From: an uncultured Candidatus Saccharibacteria bacterium
GTDB taxonomy: Bacteria; Patescibacteriota; Saccharimonadia; Saccharimonadales; JAGQNJ01
Reading direction: 5' to 3'
Length of the DNA: 64,000 nucleotides
Assembly (NCBI GenBank): GCA_964493895.1
Contig: CAZBPY010000002.1
Location: 131,351 to 195,350 of the forward strand
Shown: in pieces, positions 3,062 through 17,800 of the stretch
Position numbering within the stretch: position 1 is the first letter of the stretch
Layout of the letters: each line of letters opens with the position of its first letter
Made by a program: the position numbers and the translations under genes
Notes under the pieces: generated by a model
Databases searched by the model: none
Told to the model about the DNA's origin: nothing
Seen by the model: the letters and a program-made list of their open reading frames with translations, nothing else

Positions 3062-4285
3062 TCAAGCTTTTACGATAGCAAAAGAGTTTTTGCCGCGTTT
3101 GAGCAGATTCAGTCCGGATTGAAAATCAACCATCTGGCCGACGATTTTCTGGCCATTTATCGAGACGCTGCCGGCCTCGACAAAACGATTAGCCTCGGAA
3201 TTGGATGATGCCAGACCAGCAGCCACCAAAGTTTCAGCCAACGATTTGCCAACTTTGACCACCGGCAGTTCCTTGGTCAGACTGTCTTTCTGCTGTTCGT
3301 TCAAATCTAGAAATTCACCTTTGCCAAACAGCACTTCGCTAACTTTTCGTACACCATCAGCTTGATCTTTGCCATGGATTAACTTTGTCACCTCATAAGC
3401 TAATAGCTTTTGAGCTGCTCTTTGTCCCTTATTAGACTTGAACTCGCTCATAACTTTTTGTATCGCTGGTTTATCTAGAGTTGTAAATATCTTTAAATAA
3501 CCCTCAACATCAGCATCATCAATATTTAGCCAGAACTGGTAAAACTTGTACGGACTGGTCAGTTTTGGATCAAGCCAAACAGCACCCTCTTCTGATTTAC
3601 CAAACTTCACCCCTGTGGCATTGTTAATTAACAGGGGTATTGTCCAAACGTGAGCCTCTTGACCAGTTTTGCGCCGAATCAAATCAACACCAGCAATGCT
3701 GTTGCCCCACTGATCGGCTCCGGCTAACTGCAGGGTCACGCCGTGCTTCTCGAACAAATGCAAGAAGTCGTAACCCTGTATCAGGGAATAACTGAACTCG
3801 GCGTAACTGATGCCAGCGCCCTGTTCCGATAAGCGCTCTTTGACAAATTCTCGCCCCAACATCGTCCGCATCGGCACATGCTTGCCAACATCGCGCAAAA
3901 ACTCCAGATAGCCAATGTTTTTGAACCAGTCATAGTTATCAACAATCTCAAACTTCTGTCCCTCAAAAATGGTTTTGTACTGATCAGCCAAGCCTTTTTT
4001 ATTCTTAGCTACCTCCTCAGGCGTCTTAAGGTCTCGCTCCTGGACTTTGCCGTCCGGATCACCAATCAGGCCAGTAGCGCCGCCAACCAGTAAAATAGGC
4101 TTAAATCCGTGCTTGATAAACACCTTTACCATCATGGCCGGGGCCAGGTGCCCAATTGTCATCGAGGCAGCACTAGGGTCCACTCCCCAATAAAAAGTCC
4201 GCTTTTGCTTATCAAGGTCTTTTATATCCCTAAGGGTGGTCTGCTTAACAAAACCGCGCCATTTTAGCTCTTCAGATAACGTCAT
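3062..4285 (-). CDS. tyrS: tyrosine--tRNA ligase
   Basis: HIGH-region variant TIGHLAPAM, KMSKS variant KFGKS, and a C-terminal S4-like domain. The track starts at TTG 4294; ATG 4285 (MTLSEELKWRG) is more likely. Confidence 0.93.
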   Translation of the reverse strand: MTLSEELKWRGFVKQTTLRDIKDLDKQKRTFYWGVDPSAASMTIGHLAPAMMVKVFIKHGFKPILLVGGATGLIGDPDGKVQERDLKTPEEVAKNKKGLADQYKTIFEGQKFEIVDNYDWFKNIGYLEFLRDVGKHVPMRTMLGREFVKERLSEQGAGISYAEFSYSLIQGYDFLHLFEKHGVTLQLAGADQWGNSIAGVDLIRRKTGQEAHVWTIPLLINNATGVKFGKSEEGAVWLDPKLTSPYKFYQFWLNIDDADVEGYLKIFTTLDKPAIQKVMSEFKSNKGQRAAQKLLAYEVTKLIHGKDQADGVRKVSEVLFGKGEFLDLNEQQKDSLTKELPVVKVGKSLAETLVAAGLASSNSEANRFVEAGSVSINGQKIVGQMVDFQSGLNLLKRGKNSFAIVKA

Positions 4286-8150: not shown

Positions 8151-9500
8151 TTAGCTTTGGAGGAAGGTGTTGAGGGCGCTGCGAACGTCTTTGACTGGGT
8201 GCAACATCTTATCCTTGCCGCCAGTGCGCGGCTTTGGACCAATGGCTACTTCTAGGCCCATTTTCTTGGCTTCGGCTAGGCGTTTTTCAACATAGGGCAC
8301 TTGGCGAACCTCGCCGGACAGGCCGACTTCTCCGAAAGCGGCAGCGTTTTGTTTTAATTGCAGTCCCTTAGCCGCCGATCCGATAGCCATACAAATGGCC
8401 AGGTCGGCCGCCGGCTCGGTGATGCGGATGCCGCCGACAATGTTTATATAAATGTCCTTGTCGGATAGGTTCAATTTTGTTCGCCTCTCCAACATCGCCA
8501 CCAGAAGGTTGAGCCGATTTAGATCGATGCCGCTAGCAGTGCGTTTTGGATAACCGTAGCTGGTGGAGTTAACGAGGGCCTGAACTTCAACCAGGATTGG
8601 TCGGCTGCCTTCCATAGTCGCTAAGACGACTGAGCCATCGGTGATCTGGCGCTCGGCCAACAAAGCTTTCGATGGGTTATCGACAATTTTCAATCCGCTG
8701 TCCAGCATTTCCAGGATAGCAACCTCGTTTGTCGACCCAAAGCGGTTTTTGACCCCGCGCAGCACCTTGAATCCACCGTAACGATCGCCTTCTAATTGCA
8801 AGACGACATCAACTATGTGTTCCAGAAGCTTCGGTCCAGCGATTGAACCCTCTTTAGTGACATGGCCGACTAGCAACAACGCCGTGTTTGAGGCTTTGGC
8901 GGCTTGCATCAGCATGGTGGTGCAGCTGGTGATCTGGCTGACACTGCCTGGCGAGCTAGTTAAGCGGTCAGTGCCAATGGTTTGAATTGAATCGACCACC
9001 ACCAGATCGTATTGGCCGCTGTTAATGCTGGCCTGGATATCTTCTACTCTGGTACTGGCGGCAATTTGTAGTTTAGGACTGCTGGCCCCCAGGCGCTTGG
9101 CCCTTAGGCCAACCTGATGGACAGATTCTTCGCCACTGACGTACAGAACTCGGTGACCTTTGGCCACGGCATCAGCCAGTTGAAGCAGCAAGGTGCTTTT
9201 ACCGATACCAGGTTCGCCGGCCAGCAGAATCACACTGCCAGCCACTACTCCGCCGCCTAAAACTGTGTCGACGTCCTGAAGGCCGCTTTGTAGACGTTTC
9301 TCATCAGTTTTAACTGCTTGTTTACTATCGGTCGGTGTCAAAGCCTGGCCGCCAGACAAATCGCCGCCGGAAGAACGTGAGGTTGCTACGACAACTTCTT
9401 CAAAAGTGTTCCACTCACCACAATTAAAACACTTGCCGGCCCACACACTGGATTCAGCTCCGCAATTATTGCAAACGTATTTCTTCTTCTCCTTAGCCAC
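8151..9500 (-). CDS. radA: DNA repair protein RadA/Sms
   Basis: N-terminal zinc ribbon CNNCGAESSVWAGKCFNCGEW, Walker A GEPGIGKSTLLLQ, KNRFG motif, and a Lon-like C-terminal domain. GTG start. Confidence 0.95.
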   Translation of the reverse strand: MAKEKKKYVCNNCGAESSVWAGKCFNCGEWNTFEEVVVATSRSSGGDLSGGQALTPTDSKQAVKTDEKRLQSGLQDVDTVLGGGVVAGSVILLAGEPGIGKSTLLLQLADAVAKGHRVLYVSGEESVHQVGLRAKRLGASSPKLQIAASTRVEDIQASINSGQYDLVVVDSIQTIGTDRLTSSPGSVSQITSCTTMLMQAAKASNTALLLVGHVTKEGSIAGPKLLEHIVDVVLQLEGDRYGGFKVLRGVKNRFGSTNEVAILEMLDSGLKIVDNPSKALLAERQITDGSVVLATMEGSRPILVEVQALVNSTSYGYPKRTASGIDLNRLNLLVAMLERRTKLNLSDKDIYINIVGGIRITEPAADLAICMAIGSAAKGLQLKQNAAAFGEVGLSGEVRQVPYVEKRLAEAKKMGLEVAIGPKPRTGGKDKMLHPVKDVRSALNTFLQS

Positions 9501-9548: not shown

Positions 9549-10565
9549 TTACAATGTTTGGGGGCGGCTGTCTATGGATTGCTGTAATGACTGCACCTCA
9601 ACGGCAAGGCTATTCCGTTCGGCTACGATCTGATTATATTGATCAATCAGATCGCGAGTGCGAGTAACTAGAGCGTTGTAACTATTGACCGCTTGATTAT
9701 AAATTGGCACCATCGAATTATAGGCCTCAAAATTGCCGCTTGCTTCCAGGCTTTCAAGTTCAGCTTGTTGAGCTTGTAGCAAACCAAGTTGGGCCTCAAT
9801 TTCAATCTGATTAGCATCGATGGTTGCTCTTATATTAGCTAGCTGTTCGTCATAACGAGCCACTTGATTCTCGCGGCGCAAAAATTCGTTACCATATGCT
9901 TCGGCAAATCCTACCACCACCTGCCGATCGGAGAAATATCGTCGATAGTAGTCCTCTAACTCGGCTGGCAAATCACGCAGTTCGGTACCCAGGATCGAGT
10001 GCAGTTCACTCGGAACAGCTGCCGGATCTGAGGCTTCATATTGAGCGATTGCTTGTCGGATAGGACTATCAGCCGGCAGCCTTTCATAGGCTTGTCTGAG
10101 AAGTTGGTCGACTCGCTGGCGTTCTTTGTCCGACAAGCGGTCATAGGCGGCATGCAACATTTCGTGGGCTGCTGTCACCTGCATAACGCCGTCTAATCGC
10201 TGGTCGTTAACGTTATAGAGATACATACTGCCGTAAAGACCGCCGCTATTGATATAGCAACCTAGAATAATTGAATATTCGGCGGCGGTGCCCTGTCGAC
10301 AACTGGAATTAAACTGCTCGCGGTCAGTAATCTGCGGATGTGTAGTGTAGTAAATCCGCCGGCCCTTGTCAGTCATGGTAGTCTCATCTGCCAATGCCAC
10401 GACCGCCGGCGGAGCCTGATACTCCCGCAGCCGCCACCAATCGCTAATGTCCTGACGAAATAGCCAACCGCCCGCCAACACCGCCAGAAGGAGGAAACTA
10501 AATATCAGGCCGCCGAGACGGCGCCTGTGGTGCTTCTGGTAATGGGGATGTAAGATTGTCGCCAT
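9549..10565 (-). CDS. membrane-anchored protein with an HExxH motif (HEMLH) and a long C-terminal coiled coil; function unknown
   Basis: The basic N-terminus followed by a TM helix (LGGLIFSFLLLAVLAGGWLF) predicts an extracytoplasmic body. Motif AAHEMLHAAY is present. The last ~110 aa are heptad-like and Q/E/L-rich. Confidence 0.7.
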   Translation of the reverse strand: MATILHPHYQKHHRRRLGGLIFSFLLLAVLAGGWLFRQDISDWWRLREYQAPPAVVALADETTMTDKGRRIYYTTHPQITDREQFNSSCRQGTAAEYSIILGCYINSGGLYGSMYLYNVNDQRLDGVMQVTAAHEMLHAAYDRLSDKERQRVDQLLRQAYERLPADSPIRQAIAQYEASDPAAVPSELHSILGTELRDLPAELEDYYRRYFSDRQVVVGFAEAYGNEFLRRENQVARYDEQLANIRATIDANQIEIEAQLGLLQAQQAELESLEASGNFEAYNSMVPIYNQAVNSYNALVTRTRDLIDQYNQIVAERNSLAVEVQSLQQSIDSRPQTL

Positions 10566-10589
10566 ACCCTAATTAGTATAACTACAATA

Positions 10590-13079
10590 TTATTCAGTGA
10601 CTACTGCGTATTTTAGATCTTTTTTGGTTGAGGTGACTTCTATGATGTCGCCCTTTTTGTAACTGTCCTGCAGTAGTTCATCGGCAATATAATCTTCCAA
10701 GGTGTCTTGCAGTAAACGGCGCATTGGGCGCACCCCGTTTAGCGAGTCATAGCCATGCTGCAGCATGTATTTCTTAGCTTGTGGTGTCAGTTTAATTCCC
10801 AGGCCATGCTTGACCAACCTATTTTGCAGCTCTTGCACCTGCAAATCAAGGATTCTAGAAATATCCTTCTTGGTTAGCGCCCTAAACACAATCGTCTTAT
10901 CAATTCGGTTAAGAAGCTCTGGCCGCAGCAACTTTTTCAGTTCGTCGTTGACTTTGTCTTTGTTGCGCTGGTGCAACTTGTCCAAATCATCGATATCGCG
11001 CTGGTCGCTGGCGGCAAAGCCTAGATTAGCCTCTTTTTGGAGCTTCTCGGCGCCAATGTTACTGGTCATGATTACAATTGTGTTGGTAAAGTCAATTTTA
11101 CGGCCTTTGGCATCAGTCAGGTGGCCATCTTCAAGCACCTGCAGCAACATGTTGAACACTTCCGGGTGAGCCTTTTCAATCTCGTCAAATAACACCAGGC
11201 TGTAAGGCTGGCGGCGAATCTTATCTGTTAGTTGGCCGCCATCGTCATAGCCGACATAACCGGCCGGAGCACCGACCAGTCGGGCCACGTTATGGTGTTC
11301 AGCAAATTCGCTCATGTCGATCTTGACCAAAGCATCTTCCGAACCATAAAACTCTCGAGCCAGTACTCGTGCTAGTTCGGTTTTGCCTACTCCAGTCGGG
11401 CCTAAGAAGATGAATGAGCCAATTGGCCGCTTGCTGCTGCCGACACCAGAGCGGCTGCGGCGAACAGCCTTAGCCACGGCTGAGACCGCCTCGTCTTGAC
11501 CAATCACGTACTTGGACAAGGTCTTTTCCAGGTTCATCAGGTATTTGGCTTCAGATCGAATCACCTTTTGTACCGGCACGCCCGTCATACGAGCCACAGT
11601 GCCGGCTACATCATCACTAGACATAATCAACTTCTTGCCTTTTCGATCGGCGGCTTGAAGTTTCTTGAGGTCTTCTTGAATCTGGCTGGCCCGCTGCTTG
11701 TACTCAGCAGCCTTTGCATAATCCTCGGCGTCGCTGGCCTCATCTTTGCGGACCTCGACCAATTTCAATTCTTTCTGCAATTTGCGAACTTCTGGTGGTG
11801 TGCGGCCTTTGTCCAAGCGCAGGTGAGCAGCCGTCTCGTCAATTAGATCGATAGCCTTGTCTGGCATAAACCGATCGCGGATGTAGCGCTTAGCCAAATT
11901 AACGGTATCCTCCAAAACCTCATCACTAATTGTCACCCCGTGGAACGACTCATAATGTTTACGCAGGCCTTTCAGAATCGATAGAGTCTCGGCAATATTG
12001 GTTTCTGGAACCTGAATCGGCTGCAAACGACGTTCGAGGGCAGCGTCTTTTTCGATATGTTTGGTGTATTCGGCAGTGGTTGTTGCTCCGATCAGCTGGA
12101 TTTTGCCGCGAGCCAAAGCCGGCTTCAGAATGTTTCCGGCATCCATTGAGCCCTCAGCAGAACCAGCTCCAACAATCAGATGCAGCTCGTCAATAAAGAC
12201 AATGGTGCCCTTGTCAGACTCAAGCTCAGCCATAACCTTTTTAAGACGATCTTCGAATTCGCCGCGATACTTAGTGCCGGCAATCATCCCAGCTAGGTCA
12301 AGCATGACAATCCGCTTTTCCAATAAAGCGTCGGGGACTTCTTCATTAACAATTCTTTGAGCCAAGCCTTCAACGATAGCTGTCTTACCGACACCTGGTT
12401 CACCAATTAGGACCGGGTTATTTTTGGTTCGGCGGTTAAGGATAGTAATGACGCGGCGGATTTGGGCTTCTCGACCAACCACCGGGTCAAGTTTTTCGTT
12501 GCGAGCCTCTTGTGTCAAATCGGTCCCAAAGAAGTCTAAAGCCGTCTTGCGGCCCTTTTTGCTGGAGCGCTTTTTGGAAGTAGCACCCGGACCATCCTGA
12601 CGCGACCCGTCATATTGCTGGCGGTTCATAAATTGTTCCAGTTCACTGGTCACTGCGTCGATGTCCATACCCATATCGCGCAATAGCACCGTGGCCCGAG
12701 CATTCTTTTGGCTCAAAATGCTGTACAAAATATGTTCGGTGCCGCAAAAGTCTTGATTAAATTCCTGACTCAACTCATAAGCCATTTTCAAAGTCAATTT
12801 AGCTGCTGCCGACATGCCCTTGTTGCCCATGTTAATCACCACTGTATTGGGCTGGAGATTCAAAGCAATCTTAGCCTTATCCAAACTGACACCAGCATCC
12901 TGCAGGATCTTGGCTCCCATCGAGCCATCCTGAGATAAAATACCAATCAATAGATGTTCTGTACCGACAAAAGGACTGCCGGCTGCCCGAGCAATGGCAT
13001 CAGCATGCCTGAGGCTTTGCAGGGCATTTTCTGACAAGTGGTTTAAAAATTCTTGAAATTCTGAGTTTGGTGGCATCAT
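10590..13079 (-). CDS. clpC: ATP-dependent Clp protease ATP-binding subunit ClpC (class I Clp/Hsp100)
   Basis: Two Clp_N repeats. AAA+ module 1 has GEPGVGKTA, a UVR-like linker follows ([18 protein letters not shown]), and AAA+ module 2 has [11 protein letters not shown]. Confidence 0.93.
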
Positions 13080-13089
13080 AGGTAACCTC

Positions 13090-13119
13090 AGAATAGCAAA
13101 ATTAGCACTCTCATGTCAA
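13090..13119 (-). promoter_or_regulatory. clpC promoter candidate: -35 TTGACA, 18-nt spacer, -10 TATTCT, then SD GAGG
   Basis: The minus strand reads CTCTTGACAtgagagtgctaattttgcTATTCTGAGGttacctATG. The -35 lies inside the CIRCE spacer. Confidence 0.5.
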
Positions 13120-13128
13120 GAGTGCTAA
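13102..13128. promoter_or_regulatory. CIRCE operator (HrcA-binding inverted repeat), perfect match to the consensus
   Basis: TTAGCACTC-tcatgtcaa-GAGTGCTAA equals the consensus TTAGCACTC-N9-GAGTGCTAA. It lies 23 nt upstream of the clpC start. Confidence 0.85.
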
Positions 13129-13148: not shown

Positions 13149-13595
13149 TCAAGCGAACCGCTCTGCAGCAGTGGTTTCTATTAAGCACGGCACTTTCAGT
13201 CTATAGACTATCGGCGTACAAATTATTGCTCCAAAATCTCCAACAAGACCATAATTTAGGGTACCCCACCGCTCTCCTGTTTCTTCATTGAAATAAATCC
13301 CAACATATCGAGTTTGGTACTTAGGATCATCTGGATCGGGTATTTGATCATTGATTCTTTTGATATCTTCTTCATCCAGCTCTTTTTCTATAGATACTTT
13401 ATCGATTGTAACGTCATCTATGGCTGCCTGGATGCAGCCCCGACATTGAAGTGGGATGCTCTCATCGAAGACGTAAACTTCCTGATCTTCACTCTGGATC
13501 CACATGCCTCTCTCAAAGTCACGCAAAGGGCAGCGCTCAGCAGAAACTTGACCAATTCCATCAGTTAACATACCTATAATTATGCTACCAATCAC
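13149..13595 (-). CDS. hypothetical protein (orphan; one CxxC)
   Basis: ORF track (GTG 13595; alternative ATG 13571). It lies 9 nt downstream of the nusA stop. No recognisable family. Confidence 0.5.
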   Translation of the reverse strand: MIGSIIIGMLTDGIGQVSAERCPLRDFERGMWIQSEDQEVYVFDESIPLQCRGCIQAAIDDVTIDKVSIEKELDEEDIKRINDQIPDPDDPKYQTRYVGIYFNEETGERWGTLNYGLVGDFGAIICTPIVYRLKVPCLIETTAAERFA

Positions 13596-17484: not shown

Positions 17485-17800
17485 CTAAAAACTGCGGGCC
17501 ACTGACTTCCACGGCGGCGAGGTGACATGGGCCAGCCCACTTGTTTTGAGCCATCCAGAATTCGGCAGCAAATGCCAGCTGTTTGTACTTGACTGGACCT
17601 ATATAGTCAATGCCGCTGCCCCACAAATCACGTTGTCGATATTTGACCTCAACAAATATGACTGTATCACCCCTAACAGCCACGATATCGATTTCACACC
17701 ACCTGGTCCGCCAATTTTGCTTGACAATTTGATAGCCTTTGTCTTGCAAATAGACCGCTGCCACTCGTTCGGCCTGGCGTCCAATCGCGGTGGTGCTCAT
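17459..17800 (-). CDS. yraN: YraN-family (UPF0102) endonuclease-like protein
   Basis: GRQAERVAAVYLQDKGYQIVKQNWRTRWCEIDIVAV...FVEVKYR matches the family signature. Its 3' end overlaps pepN by 26 nt (convergent). Confidence 0.85.
   Translation of the reverse strand: MSTTAIGRQAERVAAVYLQDKGYQIVKQNWRTRWCEIDIVAVRGDTVIFVEVKYRQRDLWGSGIDYIGPVKYKQLAFAAEFWMAQNKWAGPCHLAAVEVSGPQFLVTAFVPEL

Follow-up and report, generated by a model that had tools for sequence, protein, structure and literature searches.

In Bacillus subtilis, the heat-shock operator known as CIRCE (controlling inverted repeat of chaperone expression) lies after the transcription start and ahead of the ribosome-binding site. Dual control by CtsR and HrcA, the repressor that binds CIRCE, is found at clpP of Streptococcus salivarius and at groESL and dnaK of staphylococci. 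In Firmicutes, CtsR acts as a repressor at the promoters of the ctsR-mcsA-mcsB-clpC-radA-disA operon and of clpP, and in Actinobacteria clpC and clpP are targets of ClgR, an activator with a different operator. In the classical HrcA-CIRCE system, groESL is the only constant target, often accompanied by the hrcA-grpE-dnaK-dnaJ operon (PMC545781). In Mycoplasma pneumoniae, the HrcA regulon comprises DnaJ, DnaK, ClpB, GroEL/ES, Lon, Pip and PepA, with a CIRCE upstream of lon (PMC7737663). Here, a CIRCE is described that overlaps the promoter of clpC in a 64-kb stretch of DNA from an uncultured Candidatus Saccharibacteria bacterium (contig CAZBPY010000002.1; this whole stretch is referred to as the window), together with the occurrence of the same operator in related genomes.

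A sequence search of the window located an exact 27-mer, TTAGCACTCTCATGTCAAGAGTGCTAA, immediately upstream of clpC (Table 1), which reads TTAGCACTC-TCATGTCAA-GAGTGCTAA. A first-pass annotation, made from the letters of the window, had described this element as a perfect CIRCE, and the search bears this out: 18 of 18 arm positions fit the consensus TTAGCACTC-N9-GAGTGCTAA, and the spacer is exactly 9 nucleotides (nt) long. No second CIRCE is present in the window, even when up to three mismatches are allowed, and a search for the 12-nt core GCACTC-N9-GAGTGC with up to two mismatches returned the same element as its sole match. The annotation had also called a chance match in 64 kb negligible, in agreement with the 0.02 matches expected from shuffles of the window. 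The end of the CIRCE lies 22 nt from the clpC ATG, and the operator overlaps the −35 region of a proteostasis gene. Based on this match and on the conservation described below, the 27-bp palindrome is very probably a functional HrcA operator controlling clpC.

Related clpC loci were collected in a genome scan that took one genome per species and kept the best 80 of 441 clpC relatives (74-87% identity). Nearly all of these 80 loci are titled Candidatus Saccharibacteria or Saccharimonadales, and the few labelled Limnocylindria, Nevskiaceae, Chlamydiae or Parcubacteria are probably mis-binned metagenome-assembled genomes. Upstream regions of at most 300 nt were taken from the window, three metagenome contigs and the 80 genome loci; two with less than 60 nt were dropped, which left 82 regions, 81 of them with distinct promoter sequences. 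As the first-pass annotation anticipated for clpC orthologues, a CIRCE is found at the same place in all 82 Saccharibacteria loci with at least 60 nt of upstream sequence, with no mismatch to the consensus in 40 regions, one in 24, two in 13, three in four and four in one. Across the 1.13 Mb of these loci, the clpC site is the sole CIRCE with three or fewer mismatches. Arm positions 2, 4-9, 19, 20, 22-24 and 26 (13 of 18) are invariant throughout, and positions 1, 3, 25 and 27 alternate between two bases. The flanking intergenic DNA, at about 0.1 bit per position, is unconstrained. For a palindrome that arose by chance and has no function, the only point in favor is that a match with three or fewer mismatches did appear in 2 of 100 window shuffles, whereas the match is perfect and stands at the orthologous position in every usable region. 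The conservation across loci refutes this reading, and its probability is as good as nil.

The conservation also extends into the spacer. Spacer positions 1-5 (TTGAC) are 82-96% conserved, and positions 6-9 vary. In 80 of the 82 regions a −35 element beginning with TTG lies in the spacer, either at its start or, in six cases, at its 3′ end. The same number have a −10 element with A2 and T6, placed 16-18 nt from the −35 and mostly TG-extended, the commonest hexamers being TATTAT, TATAAT and TATCAT. Besides these promoter hexamers, the CIRCE that overlaps them is the only conserved element upstream of clpC. At the level of sequence, this pattern is a clear phylogenetic footprint, in which operator and promoter interlock.

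An inverted repeat of this kind could instead act as an RNA hairpin, either as a terminator or attenuator for transcripts of nusA and of a 148-aa open reading frame (ORF) upstream or as an element of mRNA stability. The predicted fold (−23.3 kcal/mol, z = −4.3 relative to shuffles) is in line with such a role but does not discriminate, because any perfect palindrome folds well. Likewise, TTTTG follows the right arm in the window, yet no T-run is conserved after the stem and a terminator scan was negative. Covariation is seen between arm positions 1 and 27 (Fisher p = 2.6e-4, without correction for phylogeny) but not between positions 3 and 25 (p = 0.75). Moreover, the arms are conserved as sequence and not as mere pairing, as the 13 positions invariant in 82 regions illustrate, and the same 18 arm bases precede the unrelated genes hrcA, dnaK, dnaJ, clpP and hsp20 in varied upstream contexts. 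The terminator or RNA-hairpin reading was rejected on these grounds and is considered very improbable.

In the window, the elements upstream of clpC are arranged on the clpC strand in the order TTAGCACTC TTGACATGA GAGTGCTAA ttttgc TATTCT gaggttacct ATGATG. A promoter scan identified TTGACA as the −35 hexamer and, after an 18-nt spacer, TATTCT as the −10 hexamer, with TG at the extended −10 position. These are the hexamers and the spacing that the first-pass annotation had named. Its placement of the −35 over the CIRCE stands as well; its inclusion of a base of the right arm does not, since the TTGACA lies entirely within the 9-nt spacer and therefore needs no arm base. A second TTGACA further upstream (13152-13147) was considered as an alternative −35, but has no acceptable −10 element 16-18 nt downstream and is absent from the output of the promoter scan. 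In contrast to the arrangement in B. subtilis, operator and promoter are thus fused in Saccharibacteria, and the operator spacer holds the −35.

Transcription of clpC is predicted to start near the coordinate given in Table 1, with a 5′ untranslated region of about 4 nt. The transcript from this promoter would be nearly leaderless because merely 10 nt separate the −10 hexamer from the ATG. Within this stretch, a GAGG motif, 5 nt ahead of the ATG, had been proposed in the first-pass annotation as the Shine-Dalgarno (SD) sequence. This proposal is geometrically incompatible with the promoter named alongside it: the GAGG directly abuts the −10 and therefore falls at or before the predicted start, outside the transcript, where it is unusable as an SD for that promoter. 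A similarly short gap between −10 and ATG (6-10 nt) is observed in the window and seven relatives (L126, L149, L153, L167, L174, L196 and L205), and the short-gap state of clpC amounts to 8 of 80 genomes. In most relatives the gap is about 50 nt (median 51) and ends in an SD. Because the other genomes keep about 50 nt and an SD, the leader was seemingly lost repeatedly.

The GAGG motif could be accommodated if HrcA bound to the CIRCE acted as a roadblock on read-through from nusA or on transcription from another upstream promoter, in which case GAGG would be a normal SD. It is the only good SD-like sequence and would be transcribed only from a start upstream of the −10, and nusA and the 148-aa ORF are directly upstream on the same strand. 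However, the −35, the −10 and their 16-18-nt spacing are kept in 80 of 82 regions, which is unexpected for an unused promoter. In addition, among the species-level relatives in the genome collection the closest, L126 (ClpC 87% identical), shares a 9-nt gap, gataatact, without any SD-like sequence, and Saccharibacteria hrcA and dnaJ have the same leaderless geometry, with gaps of 6-10 nt (Table 1). A roadblock is unlikely because the promoter hexamers are conserved, and an operator embedded in the active clpC promoter is the preferred arrangement. By their sequence, several CIRCE-bearing genes thus imply leaderless mRNAs.

To survey the use of this design at other genes, metagenome sequences were scanned for TTAGCACTC-TTGAC-N4-GAGTGCTAA, which gave at least 120 matches. 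Among the 120 matches listed, the downstream gene is hrcA in 38, dnaK in 29, clpP in eight, clpC in seven, groES-groEL in six, clpB in four, a gene for an FmdB-like zinc-ribbon protein in four (all on high-GC contigs), hsp20 in three and dnaJ in two; ten further matches are too near a contig end and nine have no assigned downstream gene. Five hrcA-centred loci, one of them from the NCBI assembly GCA_049661065.1, carry four CIRCE each within 20 kb: one before hrcA-grpE, with the spacer aTTGACA.., two in tandem before dnaK and one before dnaJ. Of the dnaK pair, O1 is perfect or near-perfect and covers the −35; O2, 20 bp away, follows closely on the −10 and is degenerate (TTGGCAATC-N9-GAGTGCTAA). 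Tandem operators of this type are present at most dnaK loci among L206-L325, and clpC has one operator only. The first-pass annotation had pointed to the classical targets as places to look for further copies; on contigs with Saccharibacteria names, hrcA-grpE and dnaK do carry them, as does dnaJ, and for groESL they were found solely in other Patescibacteria and in Elusimicrobiota.

The operator-bearing clpP is assigned to Saccharibacteria because of synteny and source names. Its locus L248 contains the same tyrS-methyltransferase-recG block that L001, L002 and L005 have downstream of clpC (RecG 68% identical), and the ClpP clusters matched by a 60-aa ClpP fragment, which consist of fragments only, are named Candidatus Saccharimonadales. 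The operator-bearing hsp20 falls in a cluster named Candidatus Saccharibacteria. Beyond this lineage, the design with the −35 in the spacer also occurs at hrcA of Falkowbacteria, at clpB of Azambacteria, and at groES of a source named 'Patescibacteria group' and of Elusimicrobiota. As a separate observation on gene order, the clpP with a CIRCE follows tig, which encodes trigger factor, in L248 and L235 (Table 1). In L248, clpP lies about 6 kb beyond recG. If the gene order follows that of L001, clpP would then stand about 19 kb from clpC on the downstream side, and the matching region would fall just past coordinate 1 of the window. Taken together, the distribution of the operator indicates, as far as sequence can, that in Saccharibacteria a single HrcA regulon unites Clp proteolysis with the chaperones (hrcA-grpE, dnaK, dnaJ, hsp20, clpP and clpC).

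A candidate repressor is encoded in the same lineage. The 978-kb contig L274, recovered through its dnaK match, also encodes a 236-aa HrcA and GrpE, and the 120 best homologue clusters of this HrcA are 90-96% identical to it, carry PF01628 and derive from contigs of up to 0.92 Mb. These clusters are named 'heat-inducible transcriptional repressor' (JGI) or as a regulator of Candidatus Saccharibacteria bacterium 49-20, Candidatus Microsaccharimonas sp. or Candidatus Saccharimonadota, in keeping, at the level of the lineage, with the presence of hrcA that the first-pass annotation presupposed. Its presence in the genome from which the window derives is inferred from the lineage. The winged-helix domain matches that of Thermotoga maritima HrcA (PDB 1STZ) with E = 3.8e-15 and is 53% identical to that of actinobacterial HrcA. 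The Saccharibacteria protein has about 235 residues, as opposed to about 340 in characterised HrcAs: in comparison with a 377-aa HrcA, about 100 residues are missing after an intact winged helix, and the Pfam HrcA_C family aligns from model position 80. Complete HrcA ORFs from Saccharibacteria and the other lineages recovered span about 217-275 aa (38 hrcA loci among L206-L325). Some sources annotate these short HrcAs merely as 'hypothetical' or 'HTH domain-containing'.

The truncation of the lineage HrcA, and the fact that its binding is predicted from sequence, could be taken to suggest that a regulator other than HrcA binds the palindrome. The site, however, is identical to the CIRCE consensus bound by HrcA in other phyla (PMC545781), the DNA-binding domain is recognizably that of HrcA by its identity to the actinobacterial protein and its match to PDB 1STZ, and hrcA itself carries the operator, as is typical of HrcA autoregulation. 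Binding by another regulator is accordingly held to be highly improbable, and HrcA remains the expected ligand of the clpC operator.

No gene for ctsR, mcsA or mcsB adjoins clpC. The first-pass annotation had likewise seen no ctsR or mcsAB before clpC, where the sequence upstream holds the orphan 148-aa ORF and nusA. In the 82 clpC regions, the tandem CtsR heptad RGTCAAANANRGTCAAA (up to two mismatches) is absent within about 200 nt on either side of the CIRCE, and no match was found to a ClgR-like box, WNNWCGCYNANRGCGWWS (up to one mismatch). The suggestion of that annotation that the heat-shock regulon has been rewired onto HrcA is supported at the level of the lineage and covers clpP as well as clpC. 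The sequence comparisons thereby support rewiring as a trait of Saccharibacteria as a lineage and not of this genome alone.

These features allow the locus to be compared with the described systems. With classical HrcA-CIRCE it shares an identical operator consensus (as quoted in PMC545781), a homologous winged-helix repressor domain and the placement of operators at hrcA itself (autoregulation), dnaK and dnaJ; in contrast, the Saccharibacteria targets include clpC and, in relatives, clpP, which are non-classical members. As in the CtsR system of Firmicutes, the same genes are regulated, clpC and radA are linked and a repressor site is placed at the promoter, but the Saccharibacteria clpC has neither adjoining ctsR, mcsA or mcsB nor CtsR heptads. 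The ClgR system shares the targets clpC and clpP and differs in relying on an activator. S. salivarius clpP and the staphylococcal genes provide a precedent for a CIRCE before a clp gene, although HrcA acts there together with CtsR. The closest precedent for the Saccharibacteria wiring is M. pneumoniae, another organism with a small genome, where proteases and disaggregases are under HrcA along with the chaperones. That organism belongs to a different phylum, and its regulon includes Lon and ClpB in place of ClpC and ClpP. Its regulon is also supported by experiment, whereas the one in Saccharibacteria is known from sequence and its operator is consistently embedded in the promoter. HrcA-CIRCE control is therefore classical and known; what is distinctive here is the −35 standardised in the spacer, the Clp machinery in the regulon and the short repressor. 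No description of a CIRCE before clpC and clpP without sign of CtsR was found, with subscription-only literature and regulon databases outside the search, and a full-text literature search, likewise outside subscription-only literature, found no paper that links HrcA to Saccharibacteria or to other members of the candidate phyla radiation (CPR).

The arrangement of these elements suggests a mechanism of control. The −35 sits in the operator spacer, and the right arm takes up most of the gap between −35 and −10. We infer that an HrcA dimer bound to both arms would overlie the −35 together with the neighboring spacer DNA and would so exclude RNA polymerase. By analogy with the GroE-titration model (Mogk et al. 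1997, as cited in PMC7737663), unfolded proteins may titrate GroEL, leave HrcA inactive and derepress clpC, and a dependence on heat or GroEL is predicted. Derepression would probably also lead to transcription of the two genes that follow clpC, a gene for a 338-aa protein and radA, and in this genome the clpC transcript would be nearly leaderless.

A wider proposal is that one truncated HrcA of about 235 aa governs the entire proteostasis network of Saccharibacteria, and probably that of the wider Patescibacteria/CPR, as its sole master regulator. Its regulon would comprise dnaK, dnaJ, grpE, hsp20, groESL, clpC, clpP, clpB and, through the clpC operon, radA; it would act through a standardised, often leaderless cassette whose operator spacer serves as the −35, and would replace CtsR, ClgR and sigma-32. 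This proposal is put forward tentatively, with somewhat more doubt than belief. Several observations weigh against it or against HrcA control of clpC itself. A groESL CIRCE was not found in Saccharibacteria themselves, as the 10 groESL loci retrieved include none that is assignable to them; the GroEL of these loci is 59-63% identical to that of L211, and their sources are Patescibacteria, Elusimicrobiota or 'bacterium'. No hrcA was found in the window, in a search that covered 50 of about 61 ORFs with Pfam or NCBIfam. HrcA dimerisation and GroEL dependence may differ in this lineage because the protein is about 100 aa shorter. Finally, in transcriptomes of the Saccharibacteria strain TM7x, a comparison of two growth phases shows the chaperones moving one way and a predicted Clp protease the other (PMC10768705), which does not support co-regulation; the conditions did not include heat shock. 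More generally, the papers on TM7x transcriptomes include no experiment with heat shock, and chaperone and Clp genes are not clearly co-regulated in them.

If correct, the proposal would give this large uncultivated radiation, in which gene regulation is almost unstudied, its first well-defined regulon: an operator common to clpC, clpP, hsp20, dnaK, dnaJ and hrcA would provide the CPR with a concrete, testable regulon. It would also show genome reduction collapsing chaperone and protease control onto HrcA a second time, after Mollicutes. The 27-bp operator with its embedded −35 would in addition constitute a compact, probably stress-inducible promoter cassette and a possible genetic tool, and some Saccharibacteria strains now appear, from what is described in PMC10633639, to be genetically tractable.

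The gene controlled by this promoter encodes an 829-aa protein with two AAA+ modules (Pfam domains Clp_N twice, AAA, AAA_lid_9, AAA_2 and ClpB_D2-small). It contains an LGF tripeptide loop ('EANLGFAAS'), and its D1 lid and D2 are about 90 residues apart, which corresponds to a short middle domain. This combination we take to be typical of a ClpC that docks to ClpP, and not of ClpB. The best NCBIfam matches are ClpB and ClpA, both below the cut-off, and the 120 best homologues are 76-100% identical; those with names are called ClpC (JGI) or 'ATP-dependent Clp protease ATP-binding subunit [Candidatus Saccharibacteria / Saccharimonadales bacterium]' (NCBI).

The gene order nusA-clpC-conserved hypothetical-radA is common to relatives, with nusA upstream of clpC in 75 of the 83 related loci compared. 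The 338-aa protein has no significant Pfam or NCBIfam family and gives weak coiled-coil-type matches only; a homologue (35-65% identity) directly follows clpC in 82 related loci. Its conservation and position are consistent with an uncharacterised member of a probable clpC operon, and it could be a partner or adaptor of ClpC. From the gene spacing, clpC, the 338-aa gene and radA are probably co-transcribed, and radA is possibly the last gene of this operon. Upstream of clpC on the same strand, the window contains the orphan 148-aa ORF and then nusA. This ORF occupies the approximately 450 bp between nusA and the CIRCE, and the distance from nusA to clpC is about 100-230 bp in three loci inspected (L001, L002 and L005). 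The ORF belongs to no Pfam or NCBIfam family, tblastn found no match to it in the 83 related Saccharibacteria loci, and it is either a lineage-specific insertion or no gene. Within the same search of 50 of about 61 window ORFs, groES/EL, dnaK, grpE and clpP were also not found, and ORFs of the right size for hrcA or chaperones proved to be UvrB, a type II/IV secretion ATPase, GAPDH, PheS and others.

Table 1. Coordinates of the clpC control region and its neighbors in the window, and of comparable features in other loci
Feature	Position	Strand	Basis or remark
CIRCE operator, perfect 9-N9-9 inverted repeat	13102..13128	-	exact match and conservation
CIRCE left arm TTAGCACTC	13128-13120	-	sequence
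CIRCE spacer TTGACATGA	13119-13111	-	sequence
CIRCE right arm GAGTGCTAA	13110-13102	-	sequence
−35 hexamer TTGACA, inside CIRCE spacer	13114..13119	-	promoter scan
Extended −10: TG (13098-13097), c, TATTCT (13095-13090)	13090..13098	-	promoter scan
Stretch from −10 to start codon, gaggttacct, 10 nt	13080..13089	-	sequence
GAGG motif	13089-13086	-	sequence
Predicted clpC transcription start	near 13083	-	position relative to −10
clpC, class-I Clp/Hsp100 ATPase, 829 aa (ATG at 13079)	10590..13079	-	domains, homologues
Conserved 338-aa protein, probably coiled coil	9549..10565	-	24 nt downstream of clpC
radA (sms)	8151..9500	-	TIGR00416 above cut-off; 48 nt downstream of 338-aa gene
148-aa orphan ORF	13149-13595	-	
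hrcA, L326-L330	10001-10708 (L330: 1149-1853)		
hrcA, L274	5373-6080 (stored coordinates)	-	
hrcA with short −10-to-ATG gap, L326	~9982-10001		
dnaJ with short −10-to-ATG gap, L326	~17720-17741		
dnaK tandem operators, L326	12282-12355		
dnaK tandem operators, L329	11633-11706		
dnaK tandem operators, L274 (oriented)	3887-3960		
tig followed by clpP with CIRCE, L248 (oriented)	9573-11853		
tig followed by clpP with CIRCE, L235	396-3162		

The operator was also encountered outside the Saccharibacteria proteostasis genes. In L209, L212, L238 and L265, which have 62-69% GC and clearly belong to a different lineage, a perfect CIRCE with a TTGAC spacer precedes the FmdB-like zinc-ribbon gene (PTYEYxCxxC...), which, judged by this placement, may be a further non-classical target of HrcA. 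The clpC-type operator pattern gave 0 matches in viral contigs. A perfect CIRCE is nonetheless present on at least 120 viral-labelled IMG/VR contigs (L006-L125), where it precedes hsp20, groES, htpG and phage-like genes. These contigs represent either phages that exploit the HrcA of their host or mislabelled bacterial DNA. Among them, L007 has a CIRCE before an actinobacterial hrcA, L073 has one before clpB with TTGAC at the 3′ end of the spacer, and L062 contains three CIRCE copies 49 bp apart.

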